Below are positions 11,312-38,012 of a stretch of DNA of 38,836 bases, one piece after another; the first letter of the stretch is position 1, and every line of letters starts with the position of its first letter. Source of the stretch: Amoebophrya sp. A120. Lineage: Eukaryota > Protista > Dinoflagellata. Location of the stretch: positions 276,461 to 315,296 of the forward strand of contig CAJINV010000006.1 in assembly GCA_905178155.1 (NCBI GenBank), read 5' to 3'. The translations under genes were made by a program, and so were the position numbers. Under the pieces are notes generated by a model. The model saw only the letters and a program-made list of their open reading frames with translations, was not told the origin of the DNA and made no database searches.

Positions 11312-13954
11312 TCACCTGCCACCCTGCTGTTCCTTCTTCTGCTTTTTCCCACTTCGTTTGGCAGTCTTCGTTTTCCCGTGATGCTTCTTCACCTTACAGG
11401 CCCCATCTCCGGTGCGTGAGTGCAGTTTGAAATACGGTTTTCCGACCGCAGAAGACACCTTACTGCCCGGATGCGCGCAGACCGACGAATCGCCATCCTG
11501 CCCCCCCTCACTGCCTGCCGGAGCGTCGGTGCTCCAGGCCGCCTTGAGGGTTCCCATCGTCGCCGACACCTGCTTCCACACGTCGGAAGCCACTTTTTGC
11601 ACGCCGCGTCTGAAGGCGCGTGCCTGTGCCGTGTTGGCGGGGAAAAATTGAAGTAGCCCGACGCTATGCGAAATCGGGTTGCTGTTTCCATCGAGCTGCC
11701 GGGCCGGCCAGCCGTGCTCGCAGGCTGTGGGCGTGTTTCCCTGCATGGCTTCGAATTCCCCAAACATGCGGAAGAGATCGGCGTCGCTCATTTCCGTGCA
11801 GCCACGGGACAGCTCCGGATCGAACGTCCAGTTCCCGGCCCAACAAATGTCGTCCCGGTTCGCCTTGTCGCAGTCGAGTTTCAAAACGCAGGCCTGGTTG
11901 CCGTTGCCGGGATCAGGACACAGTGCGAGACGACGGGCGTTCGCACCACCGGGGCCAGTGCAAAACTCTCCTTGCTCGTGACGGAAGTGCTCCCCGTCCT
12001 TCCCGACACCGGCGCAAGGCGCCGCCGCATTCATCACTGGCACCACACCGTCGTAAGTGCCACTCATCTGTGGGTGCAGATGGCTCCACGACTTCTTGTT
12101 CGCCGCAAGATCGGCTTTGATCTTGTCAGCCTCCTGTTGCCCGGCGGCTGCCGACTTCCACGCCTTCGCTGCGGCTGCCTCCGCCTCCCGCGTTTCTCGC
12201 GCAACCTTGTCGCGACGCTGCGTGTTGGCGCGGAGGCTGTCGATCAGGTATTGATGCTTCTCCACCAAATTCGGGGTTGGAGGGTCGAAGATACGCCCAT
12301 CACGGCACATCTGTATGCCCAGGGAGGATTGCGTGGGCCGCTCTTCGTAGTTCTCAGCGAGCGTTACGTCCCGCGAATTTTCCAGCTCAGCTCTCGGCAC
12401 GGCGCAGCAGTTGTTCGGATCTCGTAACGAGCAGACGGTCGTAAACGTGCGCCTCCACTCGGCCACTTCTTGTTCGTGGAATTCTGCGTCAGCTTCGTTT
12501 CGTTCTGCTTGGGCAGCCCCTTCTTTCAGGAGCTTCTTCAGATTGCGCTCAGCGGATTCTGCTTCGGCTTTGTTTCTTTCTGCTTGGGCAGCTCCTTCCT
12601 TCTGCAGCTTGTTTCGACTGCGCTCAGCGGCTTCGGCATCGGCCTCTGCTTGTTCTTGCCTCATCTCCGCTGCCTCGGCCTTTCGCGTCGCGGTTTCGGT
12701 CTTGCGGCCTGCGGCCTGGAGCAGCTCTTTCTGCGCTGCAATTACTCCTGTCAGCCTTTTCTCTTCGGTGTGAAAGTTAGGAAGGACCAAAACCTCGTCG
12801 GCATTGCAAGCTGGAGTAGAATAGGGCGCTGCAGTCGAGTTTTGTTGGTAGCCGTCAGCGAGAACCATGCCCTCCCGCGTTCGTACAGAACAGCATTCGG
12901 AGCCGTTCGTGGGGCAGACAAGCACGCGCGGCATGCGCTGTTCGTAAAGAACATGCTGCAGGACCCCGGTAAAGACGACGAACGCAAACACCCGGAGTGC
13001 CACCGAACGCCTCACGCACTCTGCGAAGGCTGACAAGTGCAAGGCAGCACTCGCATTCACAATTTGCCACCACCGTTGCGCAACGCCTAGTTGCAAAAAT
13101 CGTGTGAGCGCAGCGCGCACAGGCGTCGGCTGTCCACTCGGGCTTTCCCCGCCCTCAATTGCAAGCACGAGTTCAAGCGGCTCGGCTTGCGCAGGGGCAG
13201 TACGACACTCCGCTCGTCCCGTAGAAGACGCTCGACGGCGGGCCCGGGTGGTTCCATGTTCTTCGCGAGATTTCGACACACGCAGACTTCGTCCGTGGCT
13301 ACTGAGGGAACGGACCTGGGAGCCGACGTCTACAAGCGAAATAACGTTTTCTTTGTCTTCATGGAAGGTCAGGATGGTCTTGCCGCTGAGTTCCATGCCC
13401 AGCACCCGTTGTTCGTCTTCCCTACTGAGGCTGATTCCTGCAAGGAGCCGTGGTTTAAGGGTCAGCAGGTTCACAACACGTTCCCTGCGTTCCACTTTCT
13501 TCGAGAAGCTGCTGAAGGCGTCGCCCGGCCGCACGTCCTTAGGCCCTTCCATACGCTCAAACCGCATGAGCACGTTGCGCGCATTATCCCAGAGGCCGTC
13601 GACTCCCTCTTCGGGCCCCTCGGCCGGCGCTGCACCTCGCTCCCAATTTATAGCGGATTCCAGCGGGGTCGTCATGTGCCTCAGGGCGAATTTGGACGCT
13701 TCCCAGTTACTATAGGTGCGCGCCACGTCCGCGAGGTGCTGCAGCATGTGTCCTACGACGAATAAGGCCCCGTCGGATACCGCGGACGCGCCGAGTGGGA
13801 CACTCCACGATGCCACGGCAAGCATTACGCCTGCGTCACCTTTTCTTTGACGGCCTTGTGCGACAAGGAGAGCCTGTTTTTTGATTTGATTTGATTTTAG
13901 ATGTCCACGTTGCACCGAAGGGGGAGGGGCAGAGGCAGATGATGCTGTCGCCAA
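11312..13954 (-). CDS. Hypothetical membrane-anchored coiled-coil protein with repeated Cys modules (large exon; ends probably spliced)
   Basis: 880-codon ORF starting at TTG. It has a hydrophobic segment ALRVFAFVVFTGVLQHVLY, two related C-x6/7-CC-x-V...LA(D/E)(G/N)Y...C modules, E/A/K-rich helical repeats (KEGAAQAERN twice) and a Cys-rich C-terminal region. Confidence 0.75.
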   Translation of the reverse strand: MATASSASAPPPSVQRGHLKSNQIKKQALLVAQGRQRKGDAGVMLAVASWSVPLGASAVSDGALFVVGHMLQHLADVARTYSNWEASKFALRHMTTPLESAINWERGAAPAEGPEEGVDGLWDNARNVLMRFERMEGPKDVRPGDAFSSFSKKVERRERVVNLLTLKPRLLAGISLSREDEQRVLGMELSGKTILTFHEDKENVISLVDVGSQVRSLSSHGRSLRVSKSREEHGTTRARRRASSTGRAECRTAPAQAEPLELVLAIEGGESPSGQPTPVRAALTRFLQLGVAQRWWQIVNASAALHLSAFAECVRRSVALRVFAFVVFTGVLQHVLYEQRMPRVLVCPTNGSECCSVRTREGMVLADGYQQNSTAAPYSTPACNADEVLVLPNFHTEEKRLTGVIAAQKELLQAAGRKTETATRKAEAAEMRQEQAEADAEAAERSRNKLQKEGAAQAERNKAEAESAERNLKKLLKEGAAQAERNEADAEFHEQEVAEWRRTFTTVCSLRDPNNCCAVPRAELENSRDVTLAENYEERPTQSSLGIQMCRDGRIFDPPTPNLVEKHQYLIDSLRANTQRRDKVARETREAEAAAAKAWKSAAAGQQEADKIKADLAANKKSWSHLHPQMSGTYDGVVPVMNAAAPCAGVGKDGEHFRHEQGEFCTGPGGANARRLALCPDPGNGNQACVLKLDCDKANRDDICWAGNWTFDPELSRGCTEMSDADLFRMFGEFEAMQGNTPTACEHGWPARQLDGNSNPISHSVGLLQFFPANTAQARAFRRGVQKVASDVWKQVSATMGTLKAAWSTDAPAGSEGGQDGDSSVCAHPGSKVSSAVGKPYFKLHSRTGDGACKVKKHHGKTKTAKRSGKKQKKEQQGGR

Positions 13955-14205
13955 ACAGCTCTTTGCAAGGCCTGACTGGTTTCAAACTCAGGCATATGTA
14001 GGACTACAAGAAACAAGATCAACGGCACAAAAACGCGACTGCTCGTGCACCAGCTTCAAAGATAAGAAGTGTTTTTAGTCCTCCAAGTGCAAATGATCCC
14101 GAAAAGTCGCACGACGCGAGATCTATGTGCGAAAAATACTTGCATTCCGACTTCGATGGGCACTCATACTTACTGAGTGTGAGTACATCTACATAGTAGC
14201 CATAG

Positions 14206-16885: not shown

Positions 16886-18274
16886 AATGATGCAATTGCA
16901 CCGCTTCTTCTTCTTCTTGAGTACGTATAAAAAGCTGGAAATCTATGTCCACTTATCGTTACGATCCAGATCGAAATTGAATCCGTTATCAAGCAATAAA
17001 GCGAATATCGCTAGTAGAGGTACTCTACTGGACGTTTTGTAAACTCTTCAGCTACAGTTGTGTAAACACGACAAAGCCGGTGCCCGGTTTTCGAAAAGAG
17101 ACGGAAAGAAATAGATACTGACTGAAGCCTCTGTTGCGCTACTTGTACTCACGCTTAATGAAAAAATCAGCCAACTAAGCCTCGGAAGAGCTGTGCCAAT
17201 TGCAAGTATTTTTGTGATCTTCGGCGTTTGGCGGTGGTATAGCTGCCCAACTCGATTCATTTTATACAAAGCGCCATCGAGGATGGCACAGGGAAGGCAA
17301 AAAGCTCAATGACATGGGCAATCAATAATTTATACAATTTTCATTTACAACGAGACCACGGCACGGAAGTGCTTTCACATTTTAAGATCCTCTGTGTCTG
17401 TAATTCCAGATCTCATCTTGATATCCATATTTGATTGAATTCGGATTGGTATTTACCAGAGTGGAGCTTTCGTTTCTGGAACAATGTTCATTCGGTCAAT
17501 TCTCGTCAACTGGTGAACAAGACCGCTATGGACACGATTTGTAGACAGCCTGCACTATGTACATTTTCAGACACATCAATCTTACTACTGAACCGAGAGT
17601 GGCGGAAATGGAAGTTGATATCCCCGTATACGCAAGAGCAAGACGCAAGGCGTGCTCGCGTACTAGTACATTCAGGGTCGACAATTACACTTAGAAGAGA
17701 TAAAGATGAAAGCGATGAGCCATTCATTAGACAGCCGGCGAAGCATTTTTTTTCAGATCCTGCGCATTGATGTTGGTCCATTGGGTGCTCGTACACCGGA
17801 TAACAATAATCCTTATGTTCACTTACATATTTTTGTGCGCCCATTCATTTTACAGGTAGACTTATTCATTGTAAGTATCTGTGAAAAAGTTGACGAAGTT
17901 CTTCATCATCTTCGTGCAGACAAGCCAAGCACGAGTCGTGCACTGTTCTGTAAAAAGATCAATGACGTTTAAGGCTTATGCAACGCAAGAAAGCATTCTC
18001 AAATTTGATTCTAAGTATAGGTAAATCATACAGCAAAAGTATATACAAGGACGCCAAGTAGCGATTTTCTGGTGTGATGGAAGTGCCAATTACAGCTGTA
18101 ATCAAATCAGTAAGTAGCCAAGTGCGATTTTCTAACTAAGTCTTGCGTTTTCGTGTCCGGCAGCTCACAAGCCTGGAGTATGGCCTCCAGACAGCACGTG
18201 AGCACCTCCATGTCTCTCGACATCGTTTTCACCATGTCCACACCACACACACGGGCACGCACTTTCCGAAGAAG

Positions 18275-20305
18275 CTAACACAAGTCGTCCGCGATTTTGG
18301 ACGGCCGAGCAACGAGAAAGTCTGCTGGTCGGGCAGCTAACATGGTTGGCAACTTTGTTCTCGACGGATTGAGTTTCTTCAAAAACTTGTACGTCGGCGA
18401 GTCTTTCAGCCGTTTTGCGTGACAGCTTCGCCAGTCCCACTGAAACTGATCATACGACCATTGTAGTGCCTTTCCGTCGGAGCCCGACCGCCATTTTTCA
18501 GCGAATTTACGAAAAACGCGCCGGACGTACGGATACCAGGTCTCATCGATCGGGTCCTCCACCATAAAATTATTACGGCTTATCCACGTGTCATCCCAGG
18601 GGTTTAGACAATAACCTTTTTTGTGTTTGGTATGAAATTGAAATTCGAAAGCGCAATAGAAGAAAAGATTGCACCAGAATATTAAGTATGCTTAAAATTT
18701 TTTTTTGCCGATATTGCAAAAACAAACTGCCACAGATTTTTACCGTGCTTCACAGGAAATTCGAGGTTGTACACGTCCATATCCTTTTGAAAAAGGAATT
18801 CTGTGGCCATCGCTAGTCGGCATCTGCTATCCAAAACGTCCTTATTCGGGTTCACAGCCATATCCACCCGCGGCAGCACAGCATCGGGATTGGTCCTGGA
18901 AAACGACAGCGTTTCTGGGGGAGTCCATTTTACCAGCTTGGCCGTGCCCGCTGCACTTGCTCTTCTGCTACGGAAACGAGCTGCAATGGATTGGCGACTC
19001 TTCTTCTCTGGTACATTCTCATGAAAAAACTCTAGCACTTCTCGAAAAAAGGCTCTATCACTTTTGTGACATCCACTGGACAGGGCGGCGGAGCCGTAGG
19101 TTTCCGGAATGATCCACTCGCTACCCAGATCAAACTCATAGGCAGCCGCTGGGCTGCAGGTCTCGCGGCCCATCGTCATAAGCAATCGCACCTTTGATAA
19201 TAAATGCATTTGAAGATGAATCACAGCAAACTTGCATTCCATGTAGTAGTTTAGCGATACTTGTTCTTGTTACGCCCCAAAAAGCAGAATCGATACACAA
19301 GAAAACATCAAAAGCAACGGGTTCAAAAAGTGAAGGCGGTTTATGCTCCTACGGGTTCAAAAAGTAAAGTCCGCTACAAAATGATAGTACAAAGGAAAGT
19401 GTACTGGTACTGCCACAGAGTAAATATAAATCTGGATCAAAACTAACATGACTTACGCTCCACTCTGTCAAGTGTGGTGGAATTGCGTTTTGTGGTCCCT
19501 CGATTTCCTTCTGAAAGTAATGCAAGTAGCTTCTCCCGAGATCGACGTCTTTATTCCAATAGTCCCGAGGCAGGTTCGTTCCCACTTTTTCTCGTAGCAC
19601 CTCGAGGAAAAGGTCTTCACAGCTTTCCGTGCGGTTCGCGAGAGTCCGGTCATCAATGGCTTGAGAAAGTGCCGCCGCAGCAACTTTCCTGCCATTGGCA
19701 TCTTTCTGCGAATGCGATTTACTCGTGTGAAGGAGTGCTCCCGCCTCCGCTGCTGATAAAAAACTCAGAATGCCCTCGTTTTCATTGAGCTTCATGTTTC
19801 CAAACATCATCAGGCCTGGTTCGGCGTTCTTGATGTCGTCGAGCAGCTTGCGTTGCTCTCTCCGACCTGCCTCGTGTTGTTCCTCTTCGTTCCTCACTGT
19901 GGCGGGCGGATGTGAAGCATTGTTCTCGGCTGGGGAGCCGTCACTTCTGCTTCTTTTCGACGGTCTCCGGCCTGCGTCAGGGCTTGCCGATCGAGTACGC
20001 ACAGCATCATACAGCCTCTTCATGTGGGCTCGCACGGTTGCGACAGGGCGATCAGCAAAGGAACTCAGAGTTTTTGCAGCATTCTCAGGCACGTTAGCGA
20101 TTCTTCTCAGCTGCGACGCGCTGCGGTTTTCCCGCTCGTGCTGCAAGCGACTTTCATTCCTGCGAGGCGGTGGAAAACGCGAGTCGAGTTGCGAGCGTGC
20201 GCTTGCATTCAATTCTCCTTTACTGCTGCTGCTGCTGGCACATGTGCCACGAATTGCGCCGAGACACAATAGGTGGATGCCTAGAAGAGTACTGACCGAT
20301 CTCAT
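18275..20305 (-). CDS. Putative secreted protein with a Cys/Trp-rich domain; canonical GT-AG introns; 3' end uncertain
   Basis: Signal-peptide-like start MRSVSTLLGIHLLCLGAIRGTCA. Exons 20305-19457, 19191-18744 and 18615 onward are joined by GTAAGT...AAG and GTAAAA...AAG introns. All three exons align by eye with the 3' exons of the neighbouring kinase gene. Confidence 0.75.
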
Positions 20306-21562
20306 GCTTTGATTTTGATATGCTTCAAGAATACCATCAAAGCAGAATTTTCAAATTTAGATATCTCTTTTTGAATCTGCTACATCAACGACAAGCGTGT
20401 GGGGTATAAATATCTTTCGACGACGAGTCAAGAGCGCAAAGCTATAATCATACATAAACTGATGCTGTTCGGCATTATTTCAATTCTCTTTTATGTGCGA
20501 CGGTATATCAAGGTAGTATAGAGGTACTGGAGAAGATATGACAGCCTCTATCAGTAATCGTAAAATCATCAGTCAAAACCACCCATGTTCGAAATAAAAT
20601 TTTACAAAAATAAGTACATGTTTGCTGAAAACAAAATGGCTGTTGCTAGGTCGCTGATTTTTATGCGCTTTTGATACGAGTCCACGAGGCCTGAAACAGC
20701 TTTTACGGATCCTTCGTGAGCCTAAGGCTTTGGAGTGCAGCACACCATTCGTGGCCGTTCTACTTGTTCAGCAACATGAGACCGCGGAAGAGCCGCACTG
20801 ATAGTCAGACGGCACCGGTCGCCCCAGCAGCGATTGACTTTGAACAAGCTGACGTGCGCAATTCGTGCAAGGAAATCGTGGGTCATGCAATCTGATCTTT
20901 GCGGGCCCCAAGGAATGGCATTTCAAACAATTGCCCTTAGGAGTGGAGCGAATTTTCATCATCCTGTTCTTGCATTCGTTTTGTTAAATAAACGGCTGTG
21001 ACTAACATGGAGCCCAACTATTTCTGGATCAAGAACTTACCAACAATCTTTCATTTCAGAGCCCTTATCCGCGATTGCGACCAAGTAGCTGGGTTTGATG
21101 TGGTAGACAATTGGCCGGGCGTGTGGATAGGCGCCATGATTTTGAGTTGTCACAGGCAGTGCAAATTATTGGGGCTTCAAGACTAGGCACTTTATCTGCT
21201 TCTTTTTATTCGATCTGCATGCCTCGGACCATACTATCGCCTCAACCCAGATCGTCATCTAGTGACGCCAAGAGGAAGATGAGTATACAATTAGAAGTAA
21301 TTCATTGTGTCAGACGTCGCTGTTCCGCCACTCTTGTAGTTGTTCATTCTTTCACACATGGCGCAGCGGGGTTTTATTTTGATTTCTTGGAGGTCCGCCT
21401 CGCCTCTTGTAATTCGTGCTTCCGCCCCCGATGATACGCGGCCTTTGCAGTTCTCGTGCAAAAATACCAATTGCCATTTTGTTCGCTACGCGAAATAACC
21501 AGAAAATTGTCTTTAGAATGCCCCGTACTTTCCTTCTCGGAGCACATCTGATGAAGAAGCCG

Positions 21563-24500
21563 TCAAGACGGACCAGCTGGGAGTTCAATGTCTTGCAGTA
21601 GAGTAGCGAACTTGTCTTTGACGGCCTGGCTCCTGGGATGGAAATTTTCGTACATGTGCTTCGTAGTTCTGTTCCAACGAAACGGGTTTTCATTCTTGCA
21701 CGGAACGGAGCTCGACCGCGCCCTGGTCCAAGTCCAGCGAAAATGGCGATACGACCACTCGGCTCCTCTCGTGTCCGAACTCTGCCGCCAAAAAGACGCT
21801 CTGTTCTTGAAGTCCAGCTGGAAAAGCTCGTGCCATCTGGGATGCACAGCCGACGTTTCGGCAATTTCACCCTCGTTTTGGAGTTGTGAGAGCATGACTT
21901 CGGGCCATTGACGTGATTTCTTGGCCAGCGCCAGCGGCGAGTCGGTATTGAGGCAGTAACCTGTGAGCATTGCAAAAAGAAATTATTTGAAAAAACGTTC
22001 TGACGTACGAAGCTTCTGACGTACGAAGCGATCCATTGCTTCAGCTCCTGAGCTTTTACGCAACTCATTTGAAGCTAGCCAAACGCGAAATACAAAAATT
22101 GCAAAAAAAAAAAACAGCTCTGGACATGAGTGGTCCGCACATAGAGCAGCCATGGAAAAGATTTGAACTCGCGGAGCTTTCATTGGTGTAGCCAATAGTA
22201 ATATTAGAGATTTACTAAGTACCATATGGAACGCTGAAGCGGCGGACGACGAACTCCTCTATCCTGGTGTCCGCTTGAAACAGGTGCTCAGTCACCATAC
22301 CAATACGGCAGCGCCGCTCTCTAGCAGTCCGCTTTTCCTCATCGTCAACATGGACTCCGGCGTTCGACGTGCTACTACCCTGTATGCTGGGGTTGCTGTT
22401 CCTGTAAATCAGAGGATCGTCCCACACCACTACCGAGGATTCGGTCCCATTTTCCCTCCGTTTCTCGTGGAAAAAGTTCCATACCTCTCCGAAAAATTTC
22501 TTGTCTTCGCGAACGCATCCCGAACGCAAGCGTTCCGGATCGTAGACAATGTCTTCATACATGGGCCAATTGAAGTACTCCTTGTTCAGATCCCCTTGCG
22601 GCAGATCAACGTGACAGAAGGGCATCAACGCTAGAATCGTCGCAACCTGGATGAATATAACATCGACGAATGCAGCAGGTGATAGAAGATTGAGATTTAC
22701 TTACTACGGGATTCACTATAAAATATTCTTAGAGGAAACGAGTACCAGAAGAAGAAGAAGATGCTCGTCTCAAATCTCATTACATTTACAATATAGAGTA
22801 AATAATCATATCTATCAAATTTTCTTATACCGCCCAGCGGTCAGCAGGGAAAGCGAGGTCCTCGTCTGCGGCTGTGGCAGGTATCCCTAGTGCCGCGTTC
22901 GCCTCCAGCAGCCTGTCTTGACCGAGGTCCACTTCCTGATCGCAAAAATCACCAGGCTTCGAGTCTCGTCCTATACGTTCGTGAAGAACCTCGAGAAAGA
23001 GATCTTCACAACTTTCTCCGTGCTGCTGCCGTCTCATCAGCGACTTGACGCCTGATTCGTCCGCTTCTGTTTCTTCGTGTTGCTGCCACGCGATTTGGGT
23101 CCCGCTTTCGCCCAGGTGTCTATTGCTCTTTTGCATTTCTGTGCCCCCACCAGTCGTAGTCGTGCTACCGGATAGCCCTGCCGTTCTTGTTGATTCCTGC
23201 ACCGGCGCGACGTACGCCGCGGAACTAGACGAGCTAGTACCGCCTGACATCGGGCGGTTGCCACGATCTTGCCCTGACTCTGTGGCAACTGCGCCGCCAC
23301 CAGCTGGGCGCCAGGGTGCTGAGGAGCTCGAGGAGCCGCCTTCTACGACACGAGACGCAGAATCAGCACCACCACCATCACGACCTGCAGGTGAGCTTTC
23401 ATCGGGGAACTGCGCCTGCTCTGCAGTTTCCGGTCTGTCGTCATCTTCGTCGGAAATCGCTTCCAGCTGTTCGTCGAAGTAGTCATAGCCGTTTGCCACA
23501 GAGCCCGCTTCCAGGCTTGATGATAGTACAGATATTTGTCCGTCGTCTGATGCGTTTTCACCTTCATCGAAACTATCATCTGGGTTTTCACCCTCCCGTG
23601 GAGGCTGTTGGTCTTCGTCTTCTTGTGCGCCGGTTCCGACCACTTCCGATCCTTGTGTGCTCGATGATACATGCCCGCTGTGCTCATTAGCGCGGGCGCC
23701 TTCAGTGTGGCTACCAGTTGCCGTGTGAGGAGTCCCAGGGGGACTCGAGGCATCAGGGAGTGAGGAACCAGGAGCACCTTCCCCTGTCGGATGATTGGCG
23801 ATTCCCGTACGGGCTGAAGCTCCTTGCGCAGAGCCGCTCTGGTTGTCCAGAATCGGATTTGAGGTGGCTGTGCTTGAGCTACTTGAACGTTGGCCCAAAA
23901 GATCGATCCTGCCACTACCCTCAGCTGACGACTGGTCAGTTCCAACAGCAACGCCACAACCCGAATCACTACTCGCAGCCGTCGTGGACTGTAGTTCTGC
24001 ACTGTCGGACGTGCCTGTGCGCGGTCGCATTTGCGCCGTGTCTGTTCCGTCTTGCTGCGGCAACACCTCCTGCTGTGCAACACTTGATGTGGCAGCAGAG
24101 TGGAGAAGTTCTTGGTCTTGCTGCAGTTCGAGATCCTGATCATGAAGGCTGGTAGTTCCCGGCGACTGGTTGCCTTCCTCGCCTTCTCTTGTCCTTTGCT
24201 GTGCCCCCGCTGCGGGGTTTTGTTCAGCACTGCTCATCGTTTGCTCGGTGCTGGGACTACAACCACTCGTACTATCCGTCTGATCAGCACTTTCCGGAGG
24301 ATCAGGCGGTGACGCGGACGGAGCAGATGATGGTGGCTCACGGCTACCCGCTGCTGGTACTTCACCTGCTTGAGCTTCTACAGCATCCGGGTCAGCTGCA
24401 GGACTAGTTGCAGTTGCCGGACTTGCAGTCGAAGCCGCGGTGGTCGGTTCAGCAGGTACTGCCGGCTGAGCCGGCACCGCAGCAGCAGGAACCACTACTG

Positions 24501-27500
24501 GCGCAGTGGCGGAAACGGGGCCTGCAACGTGCGCAGCAGGCCCGGGTGGACCGGCCGGTGCTGGTGCCGGTACTGCTGCAACACCAGGGGTCGGACCTGC
24601 AGGTTTTGGCTTTGGTTTCGCCGGCGCTAGAAACTCCGCTCCATAAACAGGTCCCGGGGGGAACAAGGTCGACAACACTGACGACGGTGAGCTCTGAGAA
24701 GGAGGAGAAAGCGGTTGGACGTGCTGCGGAGGTGGAGCTGTTGTGTCGGCGTGCCCACCTCCCTCAGGACCATCGTTGCCGGGGGCTGTTGGTGGACCGC
24801 TAGGGTTTCCTCCACGTGGATCACCATTGCCACCACCACCACTGCCTGGATCACCATCCCCGTTGAAAATTCTTGTCGGGACCAAAATATTCGGCTTATA
24901 CCCGCCGCCGAAGCCGCCAAACGGATTATACGCATCACCGTCCCCAGACCCCAGCTCTGCTTTTTGTTTGTTCGCCTCGCTAACGTTGCCCATATGCACT
25001 GCTAAGCCGGTAGCAACAGCGAGAAGACAAACGGCGATGATGGTGATAATGATGGTTGAGAGCGAAGAGGCCAAAAAAGCGGCGCAGGGGCCCGCGGAGG
25101 ATGTTGAGGATGAGGAGGGGTCCTCTGTCAGGGGGTGAAATTTGTCTTGTGAAAGGTCGTCGTGGTCATCAACATCTTCACGTGCACAAAAACTTGGTGT
25201 CCTCATCGTGTCGCGCTGCTCTTCATCGTCGAAAGTCCGTGTCGCAGATACCGAGCATGCGGCTTTGTTCCTGGAAGCAGGAGCAAAGTCTCTTCCTGTT
25301 ACATCTTCCGCCTTCTGAGGCTGCTGATGTGACAGAGAGGAATTATCGGCTCCTTCCCTTTCAGGAGGGAGTTCCTGAGCATTTATCTTATCCACCTCTT
25401 CCTCAGAGGATGACACCAGCTCTGGCTCGTGTTCTTCTGGCGGTTCGTTACCACAATCTCGCTTTATGCCGTGTTTCAACATTTTCTCCCCTTCGCAAGC
25501 CGACTTCCCGTCGGCTTTCTGCATTTGATTCGCATCGCCGCCGTGATGTTCATCCTGCGCAACGCCGTCGTCCTGTCGTCGTTTCAATAGCTCCACTTGT
25601 AGTTCCGCACCACCGGTTGTAGTGCCCTCGAGAGCAGTGGTCGAGTTGTAGGAGTAGCTCTCTTGTTTCGCCAAAAGCGGTAGAAACGCCGTTTGATCGA
25701 TGTACTCCTCTTCGTAAATGTCCGATAGCCGGCGGCCCTTCCATTTTATTGTGAGGAAAAATCCCCCCTCCCCATATCGAAAGCGGAGTTTGTGTTGCTG
25801 TATTTGAGTACACAAATCACATCTGTCTTGCTAGAGAGGACTGCAGACCCATATCAAGCCTGAGCAGAGATGCTTTGACTTAGGCGCTTAGCATGAGAAG
25901 CGTCCGTGATGTTGGCTCAACAGCATGACAAACCGCCTCCATAATGGGACGGAAGCTGCTGCCCTTGTCTTCTTGCAACACAAACGTGATTTGTGACCTC
26001 AAATCAGCAACACAAATTTGCGAAAGCCTACCTCTTCAATATGGGGAGGGGGGATTTTTCCTTGCGATACATTTCGTCGTCTTTCCTTTCATGTCTTGTT
26101 CGTTGACTAGATTTTTCGGCGTTTTCAGTAGCAGCTTTTGCTGTCTTTTCTTGGTCGTGGTTCCTCCACGACCTACTTCGCCTGGCTGCAAACTCGCATC
26201 ATACCCAAGATCATCTCCTGGTTATGCAAGAAAAAAACTGTGTAAGTGTAACTTTGTATTGCAGACGTTACAATACAGTTACACTTGTCATGTTGGATGT
26301 GCGTCAGAGGCTATTTTCATACGTGTTTTCGCGTACTAGCTACGCATGACAGGTTTTCTCTGTCATGCAGAGCAAATTTGTGATGCTGTTCCTGCAAAAA
26401 AGTTACACTTACACATTTTTTTCCTTGGATACTGGTGCTGGCGCCTCCAAATACTTCAGCACCGTCTGCGCGTCCCACCGCCTTTCCCACCGCCACCGCA
26501 GCGTGACTTGCAGTAATGATACCAGATGGCCGAAGAGCGCGGCGTCCTGCTCTTCCCACCTGCGGGACCTCGAATACAGAATCCGGACCCGGGAATCCGC
26601 CACGGCGAACTGCGCCCGCATCCCGCAGCCCTCTAAATGCTCGTACGGCGCACGCCCGTACAGCAATTGGTAGAGGATGATCCCCAGGGCCCAAACATCA
26701 GCCGCCGGGCGCATCTTCAAACTCGCCGACCCCTCGTCCGGCTGGTAGAACGCCTCCGGCGGCATGTAGCGCGGCGTGCCGCACTGGCGGTCGCGGGAAA
26801 CGTGGGTTATACCCTCTTCCTTGTTGATCCCCCGCGCGAGGCCGAAGTCATATCAAATGTAAAAATGTCTGGGCCTGGAAGATTGCAAGATGTGTCATGC
26901 TAGTCTGGCATGACTCTGCACTCTGTATTGCGTGGCCACAAACAGCCTCTCTCGCCTGTCATGCAAAAACGCACTTTCTTATGCGGAATGCGCAGCACAG
27001 AGGCACGAAAAAACTTGTCATGCTCGGCGGTGCGTTGCAGTTCACTTATTGTTCACTGATTTGCATCACAAGTTTCCCGACCCAGACATTTTTGCATTTG
27101 ATAAGTCAGAGACCTTCACGATGTTGTCCACGATGAGGAAATTCGCGGGCTTCAGGTCAAAGTGGATCAGCCCGAGACTGTATCAAATGTAAAAATGTCT
27201 CGGTCTGGAAGGTTGCCAGGTTTGTCATGCATATTTTACATGACTCAGGATGTCTGTAATGCATGCTCTAGCATCACATATCTCTAGAGGCCTTCCTGAT
27301 GCCTATCCCGCACGACAAATGCCCTCCCCGCGTAGCACAAACTGGGCGCCTCTTGCTGGTCATGCAATAGAGATTTTTTTAGAGTCCAAAGTTAGCATCA
27401 CAAGTTGCATTCTTCCAGACCCAGACATTTTTACATTTGATAGACTGTGGATGGCCGCGACGCCCGCGACCATGTCGCGCCAGAGATTGCGGATGTCGTA

Positions 27501-30008
27501 GATAGAAAAGATTTCGTAGTTCTTCCGAAGAAAGGAGTGCAGATTGGGTATCGGAGGGGAAAGGAGGTTCTTTGGTTGTTGAGCCAGTTCTTGTTCCAAT
27601 TGAGACAACATTTTCTCATGCTCATCATGTGGTTGTACATGCAAAAATTATGGCAATCGCGATGACAAATTACATGCGCTTGCGGCTGGTCCTGCACGAC
27701 TCCTCCGAGTCAATAAATATGCACAAGGTGCTTCTTGCCGCGCGCATCTTCATGCGTGCCATCTTCTTAATCGCGGTTTAGAATCAGAGAAACCATCTCT
27801 TTCAAACAAACCAACACAATCATTATTCCACCCCATACCACAGTCCGCGAATTCCAGCAAAATGTGGATCACCAAGTCTTTTGGAAAAAATTTCGCTTCG
27901 CCGATCATCTTCACTACCCGCAGCTCGTCCACCGCGTTGTGTCTACCATTCTGGGTACTAGTTCCGGCCTTCGCTGCCCGATTTTTGTCCCGCAAAGCCC
28001 GCAGCCAGTTTACCTCCATGGCGAACGAGCGCATTTGCCTCGCGTCCCGAGCGTAGACGACTTTGAGTGCGTAGCGGCTAACGGATAACGGAGAACCTTG
28101 CTCCTTGTTTCGACTTGCACTGCTGCTTGTTCCATTGGGCTGACCACTTCGCGACGCGCCGTCATGGTTGGAGCTATAGTTGCCCCCACGACTGCCCGAT
28201 CCCGAGGTCGTAGTAGTCGATCCTTCATCTCCCACACAAGTTCGCAGGTCAACGCACTCGAACACCTCCGCCGACCCGCCCTTCCCGATCCGCTTCACAA
28301 CTTCGAGCAATAAAGTCGGTTTGTTGAAGTCCACGTGATGGCTGTCAACCACCTGTTCGCCCATGCAGATGACCATGCCGGGGCCAACGCGGGCAGTGGC
28401 GGTCACAGCGATGTTTTTCCGCTGGATAAACGCAGCCGGGGAGAGTAACGAATCATTTTCCTGGTACGAAGTCCGGCAGTCCTCGTCGTTGAAATACTCT
28501 GGTAGGTCGCTCGGGGAATTGAGAAAAGGGGCGTTGTGGCGCCCGTAGACGGGGATGCTGCAGCCCGCGGAGGGGGGATGTAGATGGTCTTTTTGAGGGG
28601 AAAAACCATTCGCCACTTCTGCGTTCGCAGGACACATCCCTTCCACATCGGGGAGACCACTAGCATGATCCCGGGGAACAAGATCGGTGTCCTTCTGGAC
28701 GTCTTTGCCATCAGGCACAGGAGAAGGATCGACCTTTTCCGCGCAGCGTGGTAATATTATCGGCGTAGAATCCTCCGGGACGACTGGCGCGTTGTTGCGG
28801 CTGTCGGCCTTGATGTCGTGGCTGCACCCTCCAGAGCTGGTAGTGTCACGAGGATTTCTGATATGAAAGCCGCGACGTCCATTTCCATATTTCGCCGCTT
28901 CAGCTACAGGCTGAGCCTCCTCTTGATTCTGGTGAAGACGCGCTGACTCGTCCACATTTCGTTGTAGCTCGGTCCTCTTACCGTTGGATGTACCAACCAC
29001 AGGAGCCACCTTTGGCAAATCCGCCTGGTAGACGAAGTCTTGCAGTCCTTGAGGCTGCTGGTCGTTCTGGCCAGCATTTTGGTGTCGCTCCTGCGGTGCG
29101 GCGAGCTGTGTGTCACCGTTTTCGCAGTCGGCATTGCTTTCGAAACTGGTTTCTCTGTTTTCCAGCCGCCCTGTGTCTGTGCGGGAGTTCTTGTGCTTGT
29201 TGTCGCGATAGGCATCAGTGAGGCCCGCATGGTCCTCAACATCATGTCTGACCCTGGGAGCAGCCACGGAATAAGAGCTCTCGGAGGTGGGCTCTCTGTT
29301 CGGATTGTAGGACGAATATTGGTCAAGGTCATCTCGTGTCGCCGCAGGCCGGACTTCCACTTGGCCGCGGCCAGGGCGCCACGCAGGAGGAGTTCCACCA
29401 CCTACATCGCTTCTTAATATCACATCATCCTCAATCGTACTCGTCGCTGCCGGTCTCCTGGCGTCGTTTTGGTCTTGGTAATACGAGCTTCCATAATTAC
29501 CGGTGGGCAAAGTGGTGTTCACTATGCCGTCGTACGACGTCGCGTTATTTCGTTCATGGGCGCGAGGGTCACGTGGGCCGCCAACCACATCCCGTGCAGC
29601 TTGTTGCCACTCATACGCTGCCTCTTCTCGAACACCTTCTCCCGGTGCATGTTGTCCCACGTCGGCTCCAGCATTTGCGGCCTGTGCATGACAAACTTTC
29701 GGCTCGAAATCGAGTGTGGTCGCAGTATGCAACGCCGACGTTGCTTGCGTGGGAACTGGGGCGACGGGTAAAGGGTAGCTGGGTACGTCATGCTCTTCTT
29801 GGACAAAGCGCGCACGGTTATTTTCGAAGCGTCTATTCGTGTTACCCGGCACTGCTAAGTCGCGGCCGGCGTTAGAAGTAGCTCCACATGGAGGCTGTAT
29901 GCAACCGTGCGGATCTGGATGGTGAGGGTTCAAATTTTTACATTGGTCAGACGGAATCGCGGGTCGTGCGGGATTGTCGTTGAAATGGTGGCTGCGCCGG
30001 TCGCTCAT
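21563..30008 (-). CDS. Mps1/TTK-like protein kinase, continuous in frame with a transmembrane helix, a Pro/Ala/Ser-rich stalk and a Cys/Trp-rich C-terminal domain (about 2200 aa if a single gene)
   Basis: Kinase motifs after removing the elements: IGKGGSAEV, YALK, LEFADC/NLHSFLRK, IHFDLKPANFL, VKVSDFGLA, QCGTPRYMPPEA, DVWALGIILYQLLYGRAPY. Approximate exons: 30008-27840, 27545-27443, 27175-27104, 26845-26432, 26217-26070, 25741-22831, 22646-22223, 21960-21563. The kinase call is strong; the fusion is less certain. Confidence 0.8.
25747..26069. mobile_element. TIR intron element, family C (323 nt)
   Basis: TATTGTGAGGAAAAATCCCCCCTCCCCATAT...ATATGGGGAGGGGGGATTTTTCCTTGCGATA; DR CATTT; join TTK/WKGRR. 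Confidence 0.93.
26223..26431. mobile_element. TIR intron element, family B, reverse orientation (209 nt)
   Basis: TATGCAAGAAAAAAACTGTGTAAGTGTAACTT...AAGTTACACTTACACATTTTTTTCCTTGGATA; DR CTGGT. Confidence 0.93.
26851..27103. mobile_element. TIR intron element, family A (253 nt), inserted in the kinase DFG motif
   Basis: Family A TIRs; DR AGTCA; join TCT GAC T/TC GGC = SDFG. Confidence 0.95.
27181..27442. mobile_element. TIR intron element, family A (262 nt)
   Basis: Family A TIRs; DR GACTG; join AIHS/LGLIHFDLKPAN. Confidence 0.95.
27549..27837. mobile_element. Decayed TIR-type intron in the kinase hinge region
   Basis: Imperfect inverted ends TATCGGAGGGGAA / TTCCACCCCATA and no DR. Removing the core plus 5 nt (294 nt) gives EFADC/NLHSFLRK. 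Confidence 0.55.
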
Positions 30009-31185
30009 AGGGTACAGGTCCAGGTTGCGCCACAGTCTGAGGGAACGCCAGTCACTGGCTTTTAGGCAAAAATAAAGGGGTGTTGCTCCGTTTGTCGATG
30101 TCGATATCCTTGGGCGGGTGTTGCTCCATAACTTATTGTACAACTTTTACTCGAATAAACAAATAGTCACGATCAACCCTTTTCGGCGGATGAGGTACTA
30201 CAACTGCTGCATGCGCAAAAATCCGATCCTCGTGAAGAGGACTGCTCGTCCCGAATGCGTCTTTCAGCCTGTTCTTGCGCCCTTCGGATCTTCTCCACCC
30301 GCGACTACGAGATTGTAAAAACGCCTTCAGACGAGCAACAAGCTTGTGCTTCGTGCGGGTTTGGCGTTGGCGTCTCCTCGAATTGAAGGTAGATACAACT
30401 GCTCCATGCGACGTGTCCATGGGTTCACTTGTACAAATAAACTCCTTTCTAAAGATGAAAAGTCGCAGAGTTTTTATCTATGAATTTGCGTGCTGCTGAA
30501 ACTGAAACCGGTGGGGTGAATGCTGAGTGTCTTACAAAATTTTTTGTGCTCCGGCATCTACTTATCATACGTGGAAAAATGAAACAGTTGAAAGTGAAAG
30601 CGGTTCCTTTTCTATACATTCTCGTCCCGTATATCGATAAAACAATGCTGAGTGACTACAAAAGGGCTTCCAAGTTGTGCTAGTCATCATACACTAAACT
30701 CCAGAAACGTTGCCGGCTGTCAAAGGCAGTCTCATGGAGAAATTATCTAGGGCTATGTCTACGTACTGAAACACTGGTCGCCACTATACCGCAAGCACAA
30801 CTGCCCGTGCCTGAAGCGATGTTGAAAAATGATTTTTTTATCAAAACGCAGAGAGTGCTGAGACGATGCCACGACGACGAGAGGCGATCCGACAAGACGA
30901 CTACATACGATTAGATTTTTGGTACGGAGCGGTTTTAATGTCAGGTTGCGAGAAGAAGCACATGATTTTCACAAGCAAGATCAGTTCTGGCGATGAGAAG
31001 TAAAAAAGGGGTTTTCGATTTTGACTTTTGCGAATTAGTGTTCATCTTGAGAGCCTCGCACTACTAGTGCCATTTCTGCATGCACTATGTTGGAAATGGA
31101 TCACGGTGATGAACTATGTTGGAAATGGATTGTATATGCGTATTGTATTTTTATTTTTTCAGTTGTTTTTTGCAAATTAGTCGTG

Positions 31186-32732
31186 CCTTGAGGCAAATGC
31201 CCAACAACTGCGGAGGGGTAAGTAGCGGAGGGTGTAGACGGCACATGCAGAATCGCAGTGCCGTCCTGGTAGCAGAAGTGTAATAATAGATGGCGTCTGC
31301 TTTCAAAAAGTAAGCACTTTGCACTTTTAGCACTATCCGCAGCTAATTCTGGGTCTAATCGACTGCAACTTGCCCTCCGCCCCCCCTCCGCTAGGCGAGT
31401 GTCAAGACGTGACGCCATCCTGGAAAGCGTTTTATGCGTTGTTGATTTTGTTTCTCGGTTTTTTTGTCGGTTTCGTAAAATTTGAAAACTCAGCATGCTA
31501 TGAGGCACATGCCCCGCAACTGCGGAGGGGTCGCGGAGGGTGTAGACGGCACATGCAGAATCGCAGTGCCGTCCTGGTAACAGGAGTTTAACAATAAATG
31601 CCATCTGTTGTCAAAAAATAAGCACTTTACACTTTTCATACTATCCGCAGCTACCTCTGGGTCTAATCGACTGCAACATGCCCTCCGCCACCCCTCCGCT
31701 AGGCGAAGGTCAAGAGCTGATACCATGCTGAAAAGCTTTTTATTCGTTTTTACTTTTGTTTTTCGCTTTTCTTGCCGGTTTTGCAAGTTTTCAAAATTCA
31801 GCATGCTATGAGGAACATGCCCAGCAACTGCGGAGGGGTAGCGGAGGGTGTAGACGGCACATGCAGAATCGCAGTGCCGTCCTGGTAAGAGAAGTTCAAT
31901 AATAAATGCCATCCGTTGTCAAAAAGTAAGCACTTTACACTTTTCATACTATCCGCAGCTAATTCTGGGTCTAATCGACTGCAACTTGCCCTCCGCCACC
32001 CCTCCGCTAGGCGAGTGTCAAGAGGTGTCACCATGCTGAAAAACTTTTTATGCGTTTTCACTTTTGTTTTTCGCTTTTTTTGCCGGTTTTGCAAGTTTTC
32101 AAAATTCAGCATGCTATGAGGAACATGCCCAGCAACTGCGGACGGGTAGCGGAGGGTGTAGACGGCACATGCAGAATCGCAGTGCCGTCCTGGTAAGAGA
32201 AGTTCAATAATAAATGCCATCTGTTGTCAAAAAATAAGCACTTTACACTTTTCATACTATCCGCAGCTAATTCTGGGTCTAATCGACTGCAACTTGCCCT
32301 CCGCCACCCCTCCGCTCGGCGAGTGGCAAGAGGTGTTACCATGCTGAAAAGCTTTTTATGCGTTTCCACTTTTGTTTTTCGTTTTTTTGTCGGTTTTGCA
32401 TGTTTTCAAAATTCAGCATGCTATGAGGAACATGCCCAGCAACTGCGGAGGGGTAGCGGAGGGTGTAGACGGCACATGCAGAAGCGCAGTGCCGTCCTGG
32501 TAGCAGAAGTGTAATAATAAATGGCATCTGCTTTCAAAAAGTAAGCACTTTGCACTTTTAGTACTATCCGCAGCTAATTCTGGGTATAATCGACTGCAAC
32601 TTGCCCTCCGCCACCCCTCCGCTAGCCAAGTGTCAAGACATGACACCATGCTGAAAAGCTTTTTCTGCGTTTTTGCTTTTGTTTCTCGTTTTTTTTTGTC
32701 GGTTTCGCAAACTTTTAAACTTCAGCATGCTA
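31186..32732. repeat. 308-bp tandem repeat array, 5 copies, each with nested inverted repeats
   Basis: TCAGCATGCTA recurs at 31490, 31798, 32106, 32413 and 32722 (spacing 308, 308, 307, 309). Confidence 0.95.
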
Positions 32733-32788
32733 TACGTATCCTATACGGATTCAAAATCATATACAATCCATTTCCGACACGCATATAC

Positions 32789-34936: not shown

Positions 34937-37748
34937 TTACTTCACCTCCTTCAAAAAGCGGAAGTAGAGTTTCTTAGCCAGCAGCCGGTGCTTCTTTGAC
35001 TTCGCGTACCAGGCTATCCAAGAAAAAAACTGTGTAAGTGTAACTTTCTTTGGCAGACAGCATCACAAATTTGCTCTACATGACAGAGAAAACCTCTCAT
35101 GCGCGGCTTGTACGGGAAAACACACATGAAAAAAGAAGTTCGTGGCTGTGTGGCATGACAGGCGTAACTCTGTTGCATATTCTGCATTACAGAGTTACAC
35201 TTACACAGTAGTTTTTTTCTTGCATACAGGCGGCGTCGTGTCCGTGGTGGCACTTCTGCTCCGGGTCCGCTCCGTAGTGCAGGATTAAGAAGTATCAAGT
35301 GCAAAAATGTCTCGGTCTGGAAGAGTGTAGACTTGTCATGCAGATTTTCCATGACCCATGAGTTCAGGAATGCGGGACTTAGCATGACAGACTCTGCGAG
35401 GTCTCTGCCATGCCTATTCTGCATGAGAAAGTCCGTTCCAACTTGGTCAAAAGTGGACAGCTTTTGGCATTCATGCAACACAGATTTTTGCATGCTTCAG
35501 ATTTGTCATGACAAGTTACAATCTTCCAGACCCAGATATTTTTGCAATTCATAAGAAATGGCACAGGTCTTCCTTCCCCGTTTTCGCAGCGTAGTGCAAA
35601 ACGGTCTGTCCGTTGTTGGGCCACTTGTTGTCCAGTGCTTTCCAGCCCTGGTTGTTGAGCATCTTGAAGCACTTCTTGTACTCCGCCGGCACCAATTCCT
35701 CGGCTTATCCTGTGCAAAAGTCTATCGCATTCGGAGTAATTGCATTTATGCATTACAAATCTCTTTCTCAAGGTAAATCCGCATTACAAATTGAATTTCT
35801 AATGCTGGGCTAATTTGTGATGCAATCGATACTAGTACGATGCTTTTGCATTACATATGGCTTCGTACGGAGACATGATGTCACTCGCCTTGATCACTTT
35901 CTCCTGTATGAGAGTGCACGATTCCCCCCTCATCTTTCGTATTTTTGCATGAACAGCAATACAAACACGACCACAGACACACGTGGAGCTCCCTGTGCAT
36001 GACAAATTCATGCGCCTAGTGTAGATAGTACTGCTTGGGCAGCTTCCGGAATCTGTGATGCATAAACAGTGCCACAGGGAAGCACTTGGATTTGGGATTT
36101 TGCATGAGAAATGAGAACGAGGGGGAGTTGTGCAGTTTCATATCCTGGCCGGCCACGTTGGAAGGCATACCGGATTTCTCGTCCAGCAGGTCATTGCTGT
36201 TCGCGCCGTCATCCAGCTTGCTCTGGGCCTGCGCCTTCTTAGCCGCTTCCAGTTTCTTGCGCAACTATTGTGAGGAAAATTCCCCCCTCCCCATATTGGA
36301 AAGGACATTTGTGATGTCGGATTTGCGTACACAAATCGACTTGTTATGCTAGAAGGCCAAGCGACGCAATTGTGGCCGGAATTGCAAGCAGTTTGTCATG
36401 CTGTTTGCCACTTCCAGTTGCCTCCTGTCACGCTGAAGATGCAAGGCCTTCCCACGCCGGCCAGCACTACAGTCCGCATCTTTTGCCCTCTAGCGTGACA
36501 ACGTAAATTGTGGTAGCAAATCATGCTACACAAATCTCCGTTTTAGTATGGGGAGGAGGGATTTTTCCTTTTGATAGCAACTCCGGATTCTTCTGCAGCT
36601 GGTACTTCCACTCCTTCTATGAGAGTGCACAACTCCCCCTCCCCCTCATTTGTCATGGAAAATACCAACTCCAAGCGCTGCTGCGTGGTACTGTTTGCAT
36701 GACAGATTCCGGAAGCCCAAACAGTACTGCACTGAGCGCATGAACTTGTCATGAACAGGCTCCACAGGTGGGGGTGTCTGTATTGCTGTTCATGCGATAC
36801 AAATGAGGGGGAGGGGGGGGTTGTGCACTGTCATACCTTCGCGAAAACCTGTTCGTTCGCCGGATTCGAAAAATCGATGTCCTCCGCCGGAAAACTGACC
36901 ATCAGGGCCGAGAACTCTTCGAAGAGCGAGTTTTTCTTCTTCGGGTTCGCCAAATCAATGGCCTTCTTGCCGAAATCGTCGATCACGTGCACCTGCTGCT
37001 TGATAATCGTTTCGTCCAGGTTGAGCACTAGGTAGTCGAAGAGAGGCTTGTTATTCTTTTTCGCCGCGTAGTGGAAGAAGGTGCCATATGGATTGCAAAT
37101 ATGTCTGGGTCTGGAAGAGTGGAACTCGTAATGCTGCCTGCGGATTCTAAAAATGTCTGTGTTGCATGAGCAGCCAGAGGAGTCAGCTCTTGGCACGCAG
37201 AGAGGGCATTTCTCATGCGTAATTAGCATCAAGAAGCTCTCAAAAAATCTGTGATGCTAGCATCAGCATCACAGACCTCATGGGTCATGCAAAATGTGCA
37301 TGACAAGCCCCAACTCTTGCAGACCCAGACGTTTTTGCAGTTGATATGCCACCGCCAGTCTTGTGGGCCAACTGCTGCTGGCAATTTTCGTTGTCGAACC
37401 CGAGCTCTTTGCACATCCGGAACATCTTCCCGTAAAAGTCGCACAGACCAAAGTCGTGTTCCTCGTCGTAGATCTTCGTGCCGTCCGATCGGCCCGATTT
37501 GTTGGACGCCATGGACTATGCAATGCAAAAGCATCGTACTCGTCATATAAATGCATTTAGAAATTAGCCCAGTACTACAAATTGAATTTGTAATGCTGAT
37601 TGACCTTGAGAAAGAGATTTGTAATGCCTAAATGCAAGTACTACGAGTACGATACTTTTGCACAGGATATGGACTCCTTGCTCATCATAGACTGCCGCAG
37701 CTGGTCCTTGTTCGGCACCAATTGGATCATGATCTGCCCGTTGCTGAA
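34937..37748 (-). CDS. Ankyrin-repeat protein, 9 exons split by 8 TIR introns; 5' end uncertain
   Basis: Removing each element plus one DR gives 969 nt of continuous frame ending at TAA 34937. It contains GGTFFHYAAKKNNKPLFDYLV...DDFGKKAIDLA and GQTVLHYAAKTGKEDLCHFLILHYGADPEQKCHHGHDAAWYA. Confidence 0.88.
35015..35226. mobile_element. TIR intron element, family B (212 nt)
   Basis: TATCCAAGAAAAAAACTGTGTAAGTGTAACT...AGTTACACTTACACAGTAGTTTTTTTCTTGCATA; DR CAGGC. Confidence 0.93.
35293..35553. mobile_element. TIR intron element, family A (261 nt)
   Basis: Family A TIRs; flanks AGAAG/AGAAA; join LCHF/LILHYGAD. Confidence 0.92.
35706..35857. mobile_element. TIR intron element, family D (152 nt)
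   Basis: TATCCTGTGCAAAAG...CTTTTGCATTACATA; flanks CGGCT/TGGCT. Confidence 0.9.
35907..36142. mobile_element. TIR intron element, family E (236 nt)
   Basis: TATGAGAGTGCACGATTCCCCCTC...GAGGGGGAGTTGTGCAGTTTCATA; DR TCCTG. Confidence 0.92.
36266..36576. mobile_element. TIR intron element, family C (311 nt)
   Basis: TATTGTGAGGAAAATTCCCCCCTCCCCATA...TATGGGGAGGAGGGATTTTTCCTTTTGATA; DR GCAAC. Confidence 0.92.
36618..36835. mobile_element. TIR intron element, family E (218 nt)
   Basis: TATGAGAGTGCACAACTCCCCCTCCCCCTCATTTGT...ACAAATGAGGGGGAGGGGGGGGTTGTGCACTGTCATA; DR CCTTC. Confidence 0.93.
37087..37346. mobile_element. TIR intron element, family A (260 nt)
   Basis: Family A TIR variants; DR TGCCA; join TGGG/TFFHYAAK. 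Confidence 0.92.
37517..37669. mobile_element. TIR intron element, family D, reverse orientation (153 nt)
   Basis: TATGCAATGCAAAAGCATCGTACTCGT...ACGAGTACGATACTTTTGCACAGGATA; DR TGGAC. Confidence 0.93.
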
Positions 37749-38012
37749 TATGCATTGCAAACATGTCTGGGTCCTCTGGAAGGATGCAACTTGTCATGCT
37801 AAATCCGAATCGTGCAAGAATCTGTGTTGCATGAGTGCCAAAAGCTGCGCACTTTTGACCAAAGTGAGAGGGAGTTTATCATGCAGGACAGACATGATAG
37901 AGATCTCACAAGATCTGTCATGCTAGGTCCTGCATTCCAACCCTCGTGCGTCATGGAAAACCTGCATGACAAACTTGCACGCTTCCAGACCCAGACATTT
38001 TTGCATTTGATA
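37749..38012. mobile_element. Family A element with unrelated flanks, possibly a hybrid (264 nt)
   Basis: Both TIRs are present, but the flanks CTGAA/TTCTT are not a DR. Confidence 0.85.

Follow-up and report, generated by a model that had tools for sequence, protein, structure and literature searches.

A candidate single-pass membrane kinase of Mps1 type with its kinase domain ahead of the helix in Amoebophrya sp. A120

We analyzed a stretch of 38,836 nucleotides from Amoebophrya sp. A120 (assembly GCA_905178155.1, contig CAJINV010000006.1, positions 276,461 to 315,296 of the forward strand; hereafter the window, numbered from its first letter) and in particular a candidate kinase gene on its minus strand at 21563-30008. 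Short repeats interrupt every long gene of the window, and all of these genes are on the minus strand. A scan for TAT...ATA elements with inverted ends, in which 5-bp flanking direct repeats were required, found 16 copies in the window as compared with 0.3 in block shuffles. Four of these lie in the kinase gene, and 10 of the 12 others sit in frames of at least 252 amino acids once they are excised. The elements are repetitive, forming families within the window, and the depth of sequencing run X1 is in the thousands over the bins that contain them. Passages of Farhat et al. (2021; PMC7789003) describe the introners of A120 as RNA-supported introns with direct repeats of 3-5 nucleotides and inverted repeats of 8-20 nucleotides that open with TAT, followed by seven variable bases and a run of three or more A, and give an average length of 240 nucleotides for the non-canonical introns of this strain. 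The ends of all four elements in the kinase gene fit this signature and all four are bordered by 5-bp direct repeats; together with their length of about 240 nucleotides, this leaves nothing new in the elements themselves, which here mask the continuity of a gene.

The first element (27442-27181, 262 nucleotides with a 5-bp direct repeat) cuts the kinase in helix E and the second (27103-26851, 253 nucleotides) cuts the DFG codons, so a working kinase needs such excision in any case. The third (26431-26223, 209 nucleotides) and the fourth (26069-25747, 323 nucleotides) lie in the linker that follows the kinase, and we infer that they are spliced in this gene as well. Excision of the four elements, each with one repeat copy, results in a single open minus-strand frame of 1251 codons (27647-22825), which runs from the kinase C-lobe into a long open reading frame. 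The initial annotation of this locus, which had claimed this stop-free continuation, is thereby confirmed. The long reading frame that it had described also exists, although not at the quoted size of 996 amino acids: it measures 1001 from stop to stop (22825-25830) and 973 after the last element.

Three GT-AG introns, one upstream and two downstream, complete a spliced model of 2227 amino acids in eight exons, with 6,684 coding bases and a single stop at the end. The predicted order is a disordered N-terminus, an Mps1/TTK-like kinase, one helix, a stalk and a domain of 334 amino acids. Exon 1 (27839-30008) contains the start codon, a low-complexity N-terminus of about 564 residues and, from 28316, the kinase N-lobe with Gly loop, catalytic Lys, alphaC Glu and insertions; taken alone it gave no Pfam match. 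It is followed by intron 1 (27590-27838), a GT-AG intron in fitting phase whose exact acceptor is uncertain. Exon 2 (27443-27589) encodes the kinase from the hinge to helix E, exon 3 (27104-27175) the non-RD catalytic loop HFDLKPAN, and exon 4 (26432-26845) the activation loop and the C-lobe, with a Pkinase match at E 3e-12. Exon 5 (26070-26217) encodes the initial part of the linker, while exon 6 continues with the acidic juxtamembrane linker (25063-25741), the predicted transmembrane helix (24997-25062), a Pro/Ala/Ser/Gly-rich stalk of 661 amino acids (23014-24996) and the start of the C-terminal domain. This domain (21563-23013) is spread over three exons, with GT-AG introns at 22830-22647 and 22222-21961. 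Helix, stalk and domain start share a single exon of 2,911 bases, so that no join other than that of kinase to linker is open. Here a bridge of 128 codons, which begins where the kinase ends and extends to the first in-frame Met past the fourth element, is free of stops; the same held for 57 of 20,000 dinucleotide shuffles and for none of 5,645 overlapping windows of intergenic DNA. In the other two frames of the bridge there are five and three stops.

The kinase domain comprises residues 565-930 and is preceded by low-complexity sequence (residues 1-564) without a signal-peptide-like start, the hydropathy of the N-terminal 13-mer being 0.16. Its catalytic motifs are intact (Gly loop, Lys, alphaC Glu, HxD-K-N in a non-RD loop, DFG and PPE). 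The best 22 of 25 PDB matches for the C-lobe exon were TTK/Mps1 and, together with the kinase trees described below, bear out the Mps1-like identity assigned initially. Mps1 is a soluble mitotic checkpoint kinase. The model resembles it in the non-RD catalytic loop, in PPE in place of APE, in the long region before the kinase and in its grouping in the trees with the Mps1-like locus L003, the one Mps1-like reference. It differs in its N-lobe insertions, in an apparent set of several paralogues and in the roughly 1000 residues, including a membrane helix, that follow the kinase; provided that the third and fourth elements are spliced, the product would thus not be soluble. No kinetochore-targeting domain was detected by Pfam in the exon proteins.

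Relatives of the kinase were sought in metagenomes with the C-lobe exon, which kept 80 loci, and a downstream helix was scored in 79 of them (all except L065). An in-frame downstream helix was present in 22 loci; 18 of these lie in DNA of at least 60% GC and resemble bacterial Hanks kinases, and such loci were placed elsewhere in both trees, apart from the model. Three of the four best loci, L001, L002 and L004, come from one project. L001 has an uninterrupted frame of 1554 codons with a kinase at 283-606 and a helix at 906-924 (hydropathy 2.56), followed by 630 amino acids, and its product is present in the protein collection as P0016. In L004 the helix (3.46) lies about 150 residues after the kinase within the exon that bears the C-lobe, with 48 further residues before the end of the contig; in L002 the contig edge cuts the sequence where a hydrophobic run begins. 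In the kinase of L004 (L004:1101-1976, plus strand) the Gly loop is degenerate and the catalytic loop altered, and this kinase may be a member of low activity. TTK was the best PDB match for L001 and L002, as it was for the model exon.

The model, L001, L002 and L004 share non-generic features in the strand of the catalytic Lys, the hinge and the C-lobe, and are mutually best matches save for one rank taken by L003. A 19-row tree, which left out 61 of the 79 loci, split these four from 15 other kinases (Shimodaira-Hasegawa-like approximate likelihood ratio test 88.7, ultrafast bootstrap 91) and joined them to L003, a soluble Mps1-like kinase, at 86/94. A 45-row quick tree without L004 gave 96 for the model with L001 and L002. 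The tail of L001 (L001:11180-13060, plus strand) is unrelated to the outer domain of the model (hhalign probability 0.2%) and had no Pfam match; two short stretches in it recall what we take to be HMG-box ends. As L001 and L004 keep kinase and helix together without these inserts, this link is older than the inserts and no product of local chance, which supports the placement of kinase, helix, stalk and outer domain in one gene more strongly than the initial annotation could know. By the same evidence the kinase-helix junction is an older family trait, and the fusion of co-oriented neighbours proposed for it is not supported.

The helix (amino acids 1211-1232) is predicted from hydropathy and is the only strong one in the protein: the Kyte-Doolittle 19-mer score reaches 2.86 at residue 1214, the next best value being 1.46. 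The single hydrophobic helix and the Pro/Ala/Ser/Thr-rich segment noted in the first reading of the long frame are therefore both real features, the latter corresponding to the stalk (amino acids 1233-1893; P 11%, A 13%, S 14%, G 13%, T 7%). An acidic linker of 280 amino acids separates kinase and helix and is of low complexity, as is the stalk. In the model and in all three relatives a Cys, which may be lipidated, stands shortly before the helix; L002 and L004 have basic residues right before it. Because there is no signal peptide and 1200 residues including a folded kinase precede the helix, an N-in/C-out (type II) orientation is predicted.

A profile of the middle exon of the C-terminal domain, built from this gene and its neighbour (18275-20305, minus strand; 545 amino acids with a hydrophobic N-terminus and the same domain), was searched against 1.84 billion representatives and found 15 proteins. 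All 13 that were looked up belong to Amoebophrya, 11 to A120 and two to A25. None of the 15 members contains a kinase or a Pfam family above the cut-off. The family falls into group B (this gene, P0003, P0011 and P0014; support 98), group A (the neighbour gene and ten database proteins) and the A25 pair. The domain (amino acids 1894-2227) matches the neighbour gene at E 9e-28 with 25% identity and shares both GT-AG intron positions with it. The initial annotation was thus right that the two genes share a domain, although its Cys/Trp-rich character is modest (7 Cys and 11 Trp in 334 amino acids). Four Cys are conserved in at least 90% of the family rows that cover them, several Trp/Phe positions are conserved as well, and the model keeps 36 of the 37 family-conserved positions that it covers, as expected of a working gene. 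A fusion origin of the outer domain is at most partly borne out: the domain comes from a local Amoebophrya family, whereas the adjacent gene is not the direct donor, since it belongs to the other subfamily (25% identity, separate clades).

Residues 1407-1549 of the stalk (143 residues) are 39% identical to part of the A120 protein P0003, which carries a second, A-type domain, showing that such modules are shuffled. By accession number, a B and an A member are adjacent in two cases (P0011/P0004 and P0003/P0002), which resembles the arrangement of this gene and its neighbour. A hydrophobic start (13-mer of at least 1.8) was seen in five of the 15 family matches and in the neighbour, all of group A. 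A conserved motif before the domain, presumably F-box-like and without Pfam support, characterizes subfamily A and is absent from the kinase gene. It is borne by the gene at 18275-20305 (minus strand) and by P0001, P0004, P0006-P0010 and P0015, several of which have a hydrophobic N-terminus, and subfamily A members could be secreted proteins that act in the host cell.

Predicted models of the domain are mostly helical, with a mean predicted local distance difference test (pLDDT) of 59 for P0011 and 64 for the other model. No PDB sequence match was obtained under E 0.2 and no Foldseek match at E 0.001 in the PDB or among viral models; a fold search of the P0011 model (mean pLDDT 59) with VIA reached at best Z 3.0, with none of at least 5. 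The Atlas gave two leads, Branch/PF02485 clusters at 0.90 and ulvan/alginate lyase N-terminal clusters at 0.83-0.86, both under the bars of the tool (129-139 shared features against 170, recognition 1176 against 2300). Branch/PF02485 had no Pfam match in the 15 members and no fold match of Z at least 5 at pLDDT 59.

No listed sequencing run contains the stretch as RNA. Exon cover at the junctions was absent in the six RNA or possibly-RNA runs that were checked, and the raw RNA runs X3-X5 match only introner copies from elsewhere. Almost no RNA covers the gene: one possibly-RNA contig of X6 spans 22269-22443 and one of X7 (depth 2) spans 27556-27706, unspliced at intron 1, both being short exact pieces. 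Contig 17 of X7 joins 18613 to 18742, by which the second intron of the neighbour gene is spliced out at the same codon position as the last intron of the kinase gene. Run X1 has cover in all 30 bins. Its summed contig depth, which is not a copy number, falls from 100-166 over the 5' part of the kinase to 73-86 around the helix and 13-45 in the 3' part (regions compared, 27551-30600 and 17500-23617); a possible cause of this step is the presence of additional, nearly identical kinase copies that have other 3' ends. No match resulted from protein searches with three queries: the domain exon (252-2000 amino acids), the kinase exon (241-2000 amino acids, at a cut-off of E 1e-20 that was probably too strict) and the linker-helix region (1704-4865 amino acids). 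As two start choices of the reading frame at 11312-13981 are also absent from the collection, such absence is uninformative on the gene model.

That reading frame (minus strand, 889 amino acids) has coiled-coil-like and Cys-containing parts and a basic tail, without a Pfam match. At 2693-5215 (minus strand), excision of two elements gives a frame of 733 amino acids with a motif that we take to resemble GT10 fucosyltransferases; its separate exons gave nothing in Pfam. A frame of 252 amino acids at 35832-37793 (minus strand) contains five introner-type elements and a presumably ankyrin-like motif. Five tandem copies of a 308-nucleotide unit (31222-32752), 75-88% identical to the first, lie about 1.2 kb upstream of the kinase start, and a tandem unit of 97 nucleotides is found at 3-606.

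We consider it very likely that the locus is one gene and, given one gene, likely that its product has a signalling-receptor role. The explanation as a whole, a spliced gene for a 2227-amino-acid single-pass protein of a receptor-like kinase family with a kept kinase-helix core and an exchanged C-terminus, is probable, and the family is best read as a lineage-specific set of membrane kinases that derive from Mps1, have type II topology and can exchange their C-terminal domains. In such a gene, splicing would remove the four introner-type elements and the three GT-AG introns. The helix would act as a signal-anchor after 1200 cytosolic residues and hence place the stalk and the outer domain outside or in the lumen, with the kinase in the cytosol. 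Clustering of outer domains might then bring kinases together for trans-autophosphorylation of the activation loop, which is known of Mps1, and the protein would act either on the surface of the parasite or within its secretory path. For PknB, clustering followed by trans-autophosphorylation is proposed in passages of PMC3372466. A host-surface or glycan ligand would be a guess, helped only by the weak Atlas leads.

Several observations weigh against this explanation. Among the RNA records, none spans 26431-25747 or an introner junction of the gene; retention of the third element would end the kinase cleanly at 26409, and the linker contains pyrimidine-AG tracts at 26402, 25840 and 25371 and an AATAAA at 25750. 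The charges beside the helix do not favour the N-in orientation (0 against 2 Lys/Arg in 20 residues), and neither the other subfamily B members (P0003, P0011, P0014) nor the two A25 members have a signal-peptide-like start. L001, L002 and L004 share one project prefix, so that one organism may have supplied all three as paralogues; their linkers fail to align with that of the model, there being no match past amino acid 960, and the clade has moderate support, long branches and one Mps1 reference. Searches of Pfam, the PDB and fold collections yielded no ligand, substrate or fold for the outer domain.

The alternative that retains most weight, although we regard it as unlikely, accepts one gene and one membrane protein on the same gene evidence and denies the receptor. 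In this case helix and outer part would anchor the kinase to a membrane (endoplasmic reticulum, Golgi, nuclear envelope, alveoli or parasitophorous membrane), or the outer domain would act independently as an adhesin or carbohydrate-active module. Two low-complexity segments of 280 and 660 amino acids weaken direct mechanical coupling, a layout of helix, stalk and domain is typical of Golgi enzymes, and both Atlas leads (Branch/PF02485 and the ulvan/alginate lyase N-terminal family) are carbohydrate enzymes. These leads stay below the bars of the tool, however, and Pfam finds neither family in the 15 members; Branch enzymes have an alpha/beta fold, in contrast to the largely helical predicted models. 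Also, a shared kinase-helix core with unrelated tails is more in keeping with the sensing of different ligands than with a fixed anchor.

It is quite improbable that the locus makes two products, a soluble Mps1-like kinase ending in the third element and a separate type II membrane protein that starts at an in-frame Met (25524 or later), with the bridge as a remnant of an ancestral fused gene. The stop at 26409, the AATAAA and the pyrimidine-AG tracts would suit this arrangement, the depth step of X1 may mean that the two halves differ in near-identical copy numbers, and Amoebophrya genes occur in co-oriented blocks with trans-splicing according to passages of PMC7789003. Against it stand the stop-free bridge, open in 57 of 20,000 shuffles, the out-of-frame ATGs that precede the first in-frame Met, the description of such elements as introns and the relatives that keep the link. 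A recent silent chimera or an assembly join in a duplicated region, to which the scarce RNA, the three fruitless protein searches, and the short X1 contigs and depth step that suggest a multi-copy region could point, is very improbable in view of a coding sequence of 6,684 bases whose one stop is at its end, intact catalytic motifs, 36 of 37 conserved domain positions and X1 cover in all 30 bins.

Returning to the preferred explanation of a receptor-like kinase, the closest comparisons are with known receptor kinases. Receptor tyrosine kinases and transforming growth factor beta (TGF-beta) receptors have the outer domain first and the kinase last, and to our knowledge eukaryotic receptor kinases nearly always place the sensor before the kinase. 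Like these and the plant receptor-like kinases, the model joins a kinase by a single helix to a domain that is unrelated and variable; it differs in the reversed order, with the kinase before the helix and no signal peptide. The typical order of receptor-like kinases is given as outer domain first and kinase last in passages of PMC7783096. The bacterial kinases PknB, PrkC and StkP share with the model a cytosolic N-terminal kinase, a central helix and a C-terminal extracellular part, as far as described in passages of PMC3372466. However, the kinase of the model is Mps1-like and falls outside the bacterial Hanks sequences in both trees, Pfam finds no PASTA domain, and the gene has spliceosomal-type introns; the PknB-like order of domains is a convergent layout. 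In the literature searched, which did not cover subscription papers, neither a membrane kinase derived from Mps1 nor the present family is described.

If true, the combination of an Mps1-type kinase with a helix and variable C-terminal domains would be an independent route to transmembrane signalling. A sensor-last order would permit recombination at the 3' end to swap sensors while the signal peptide is left untouched. As the gene becomes visible only after removal of the introners, similar genes may be split or missed in annotation. We put forward tentatively, as a possibility that we do not yet favour, that one lineage of parasitic dinoflagellates turned Mps1 into an expanded family of inverted (type II) surface receptors for host sensing, whose outer domains were swapped in from lineage-specific protein families; receptor-kinase signalling in the domain order of bacterial PknB would then have been invented independently. 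The gene and its relatives would provide concrete candidates for host sensing by Amoebophrya, a parasite of bloom-forming dinoflagellates.

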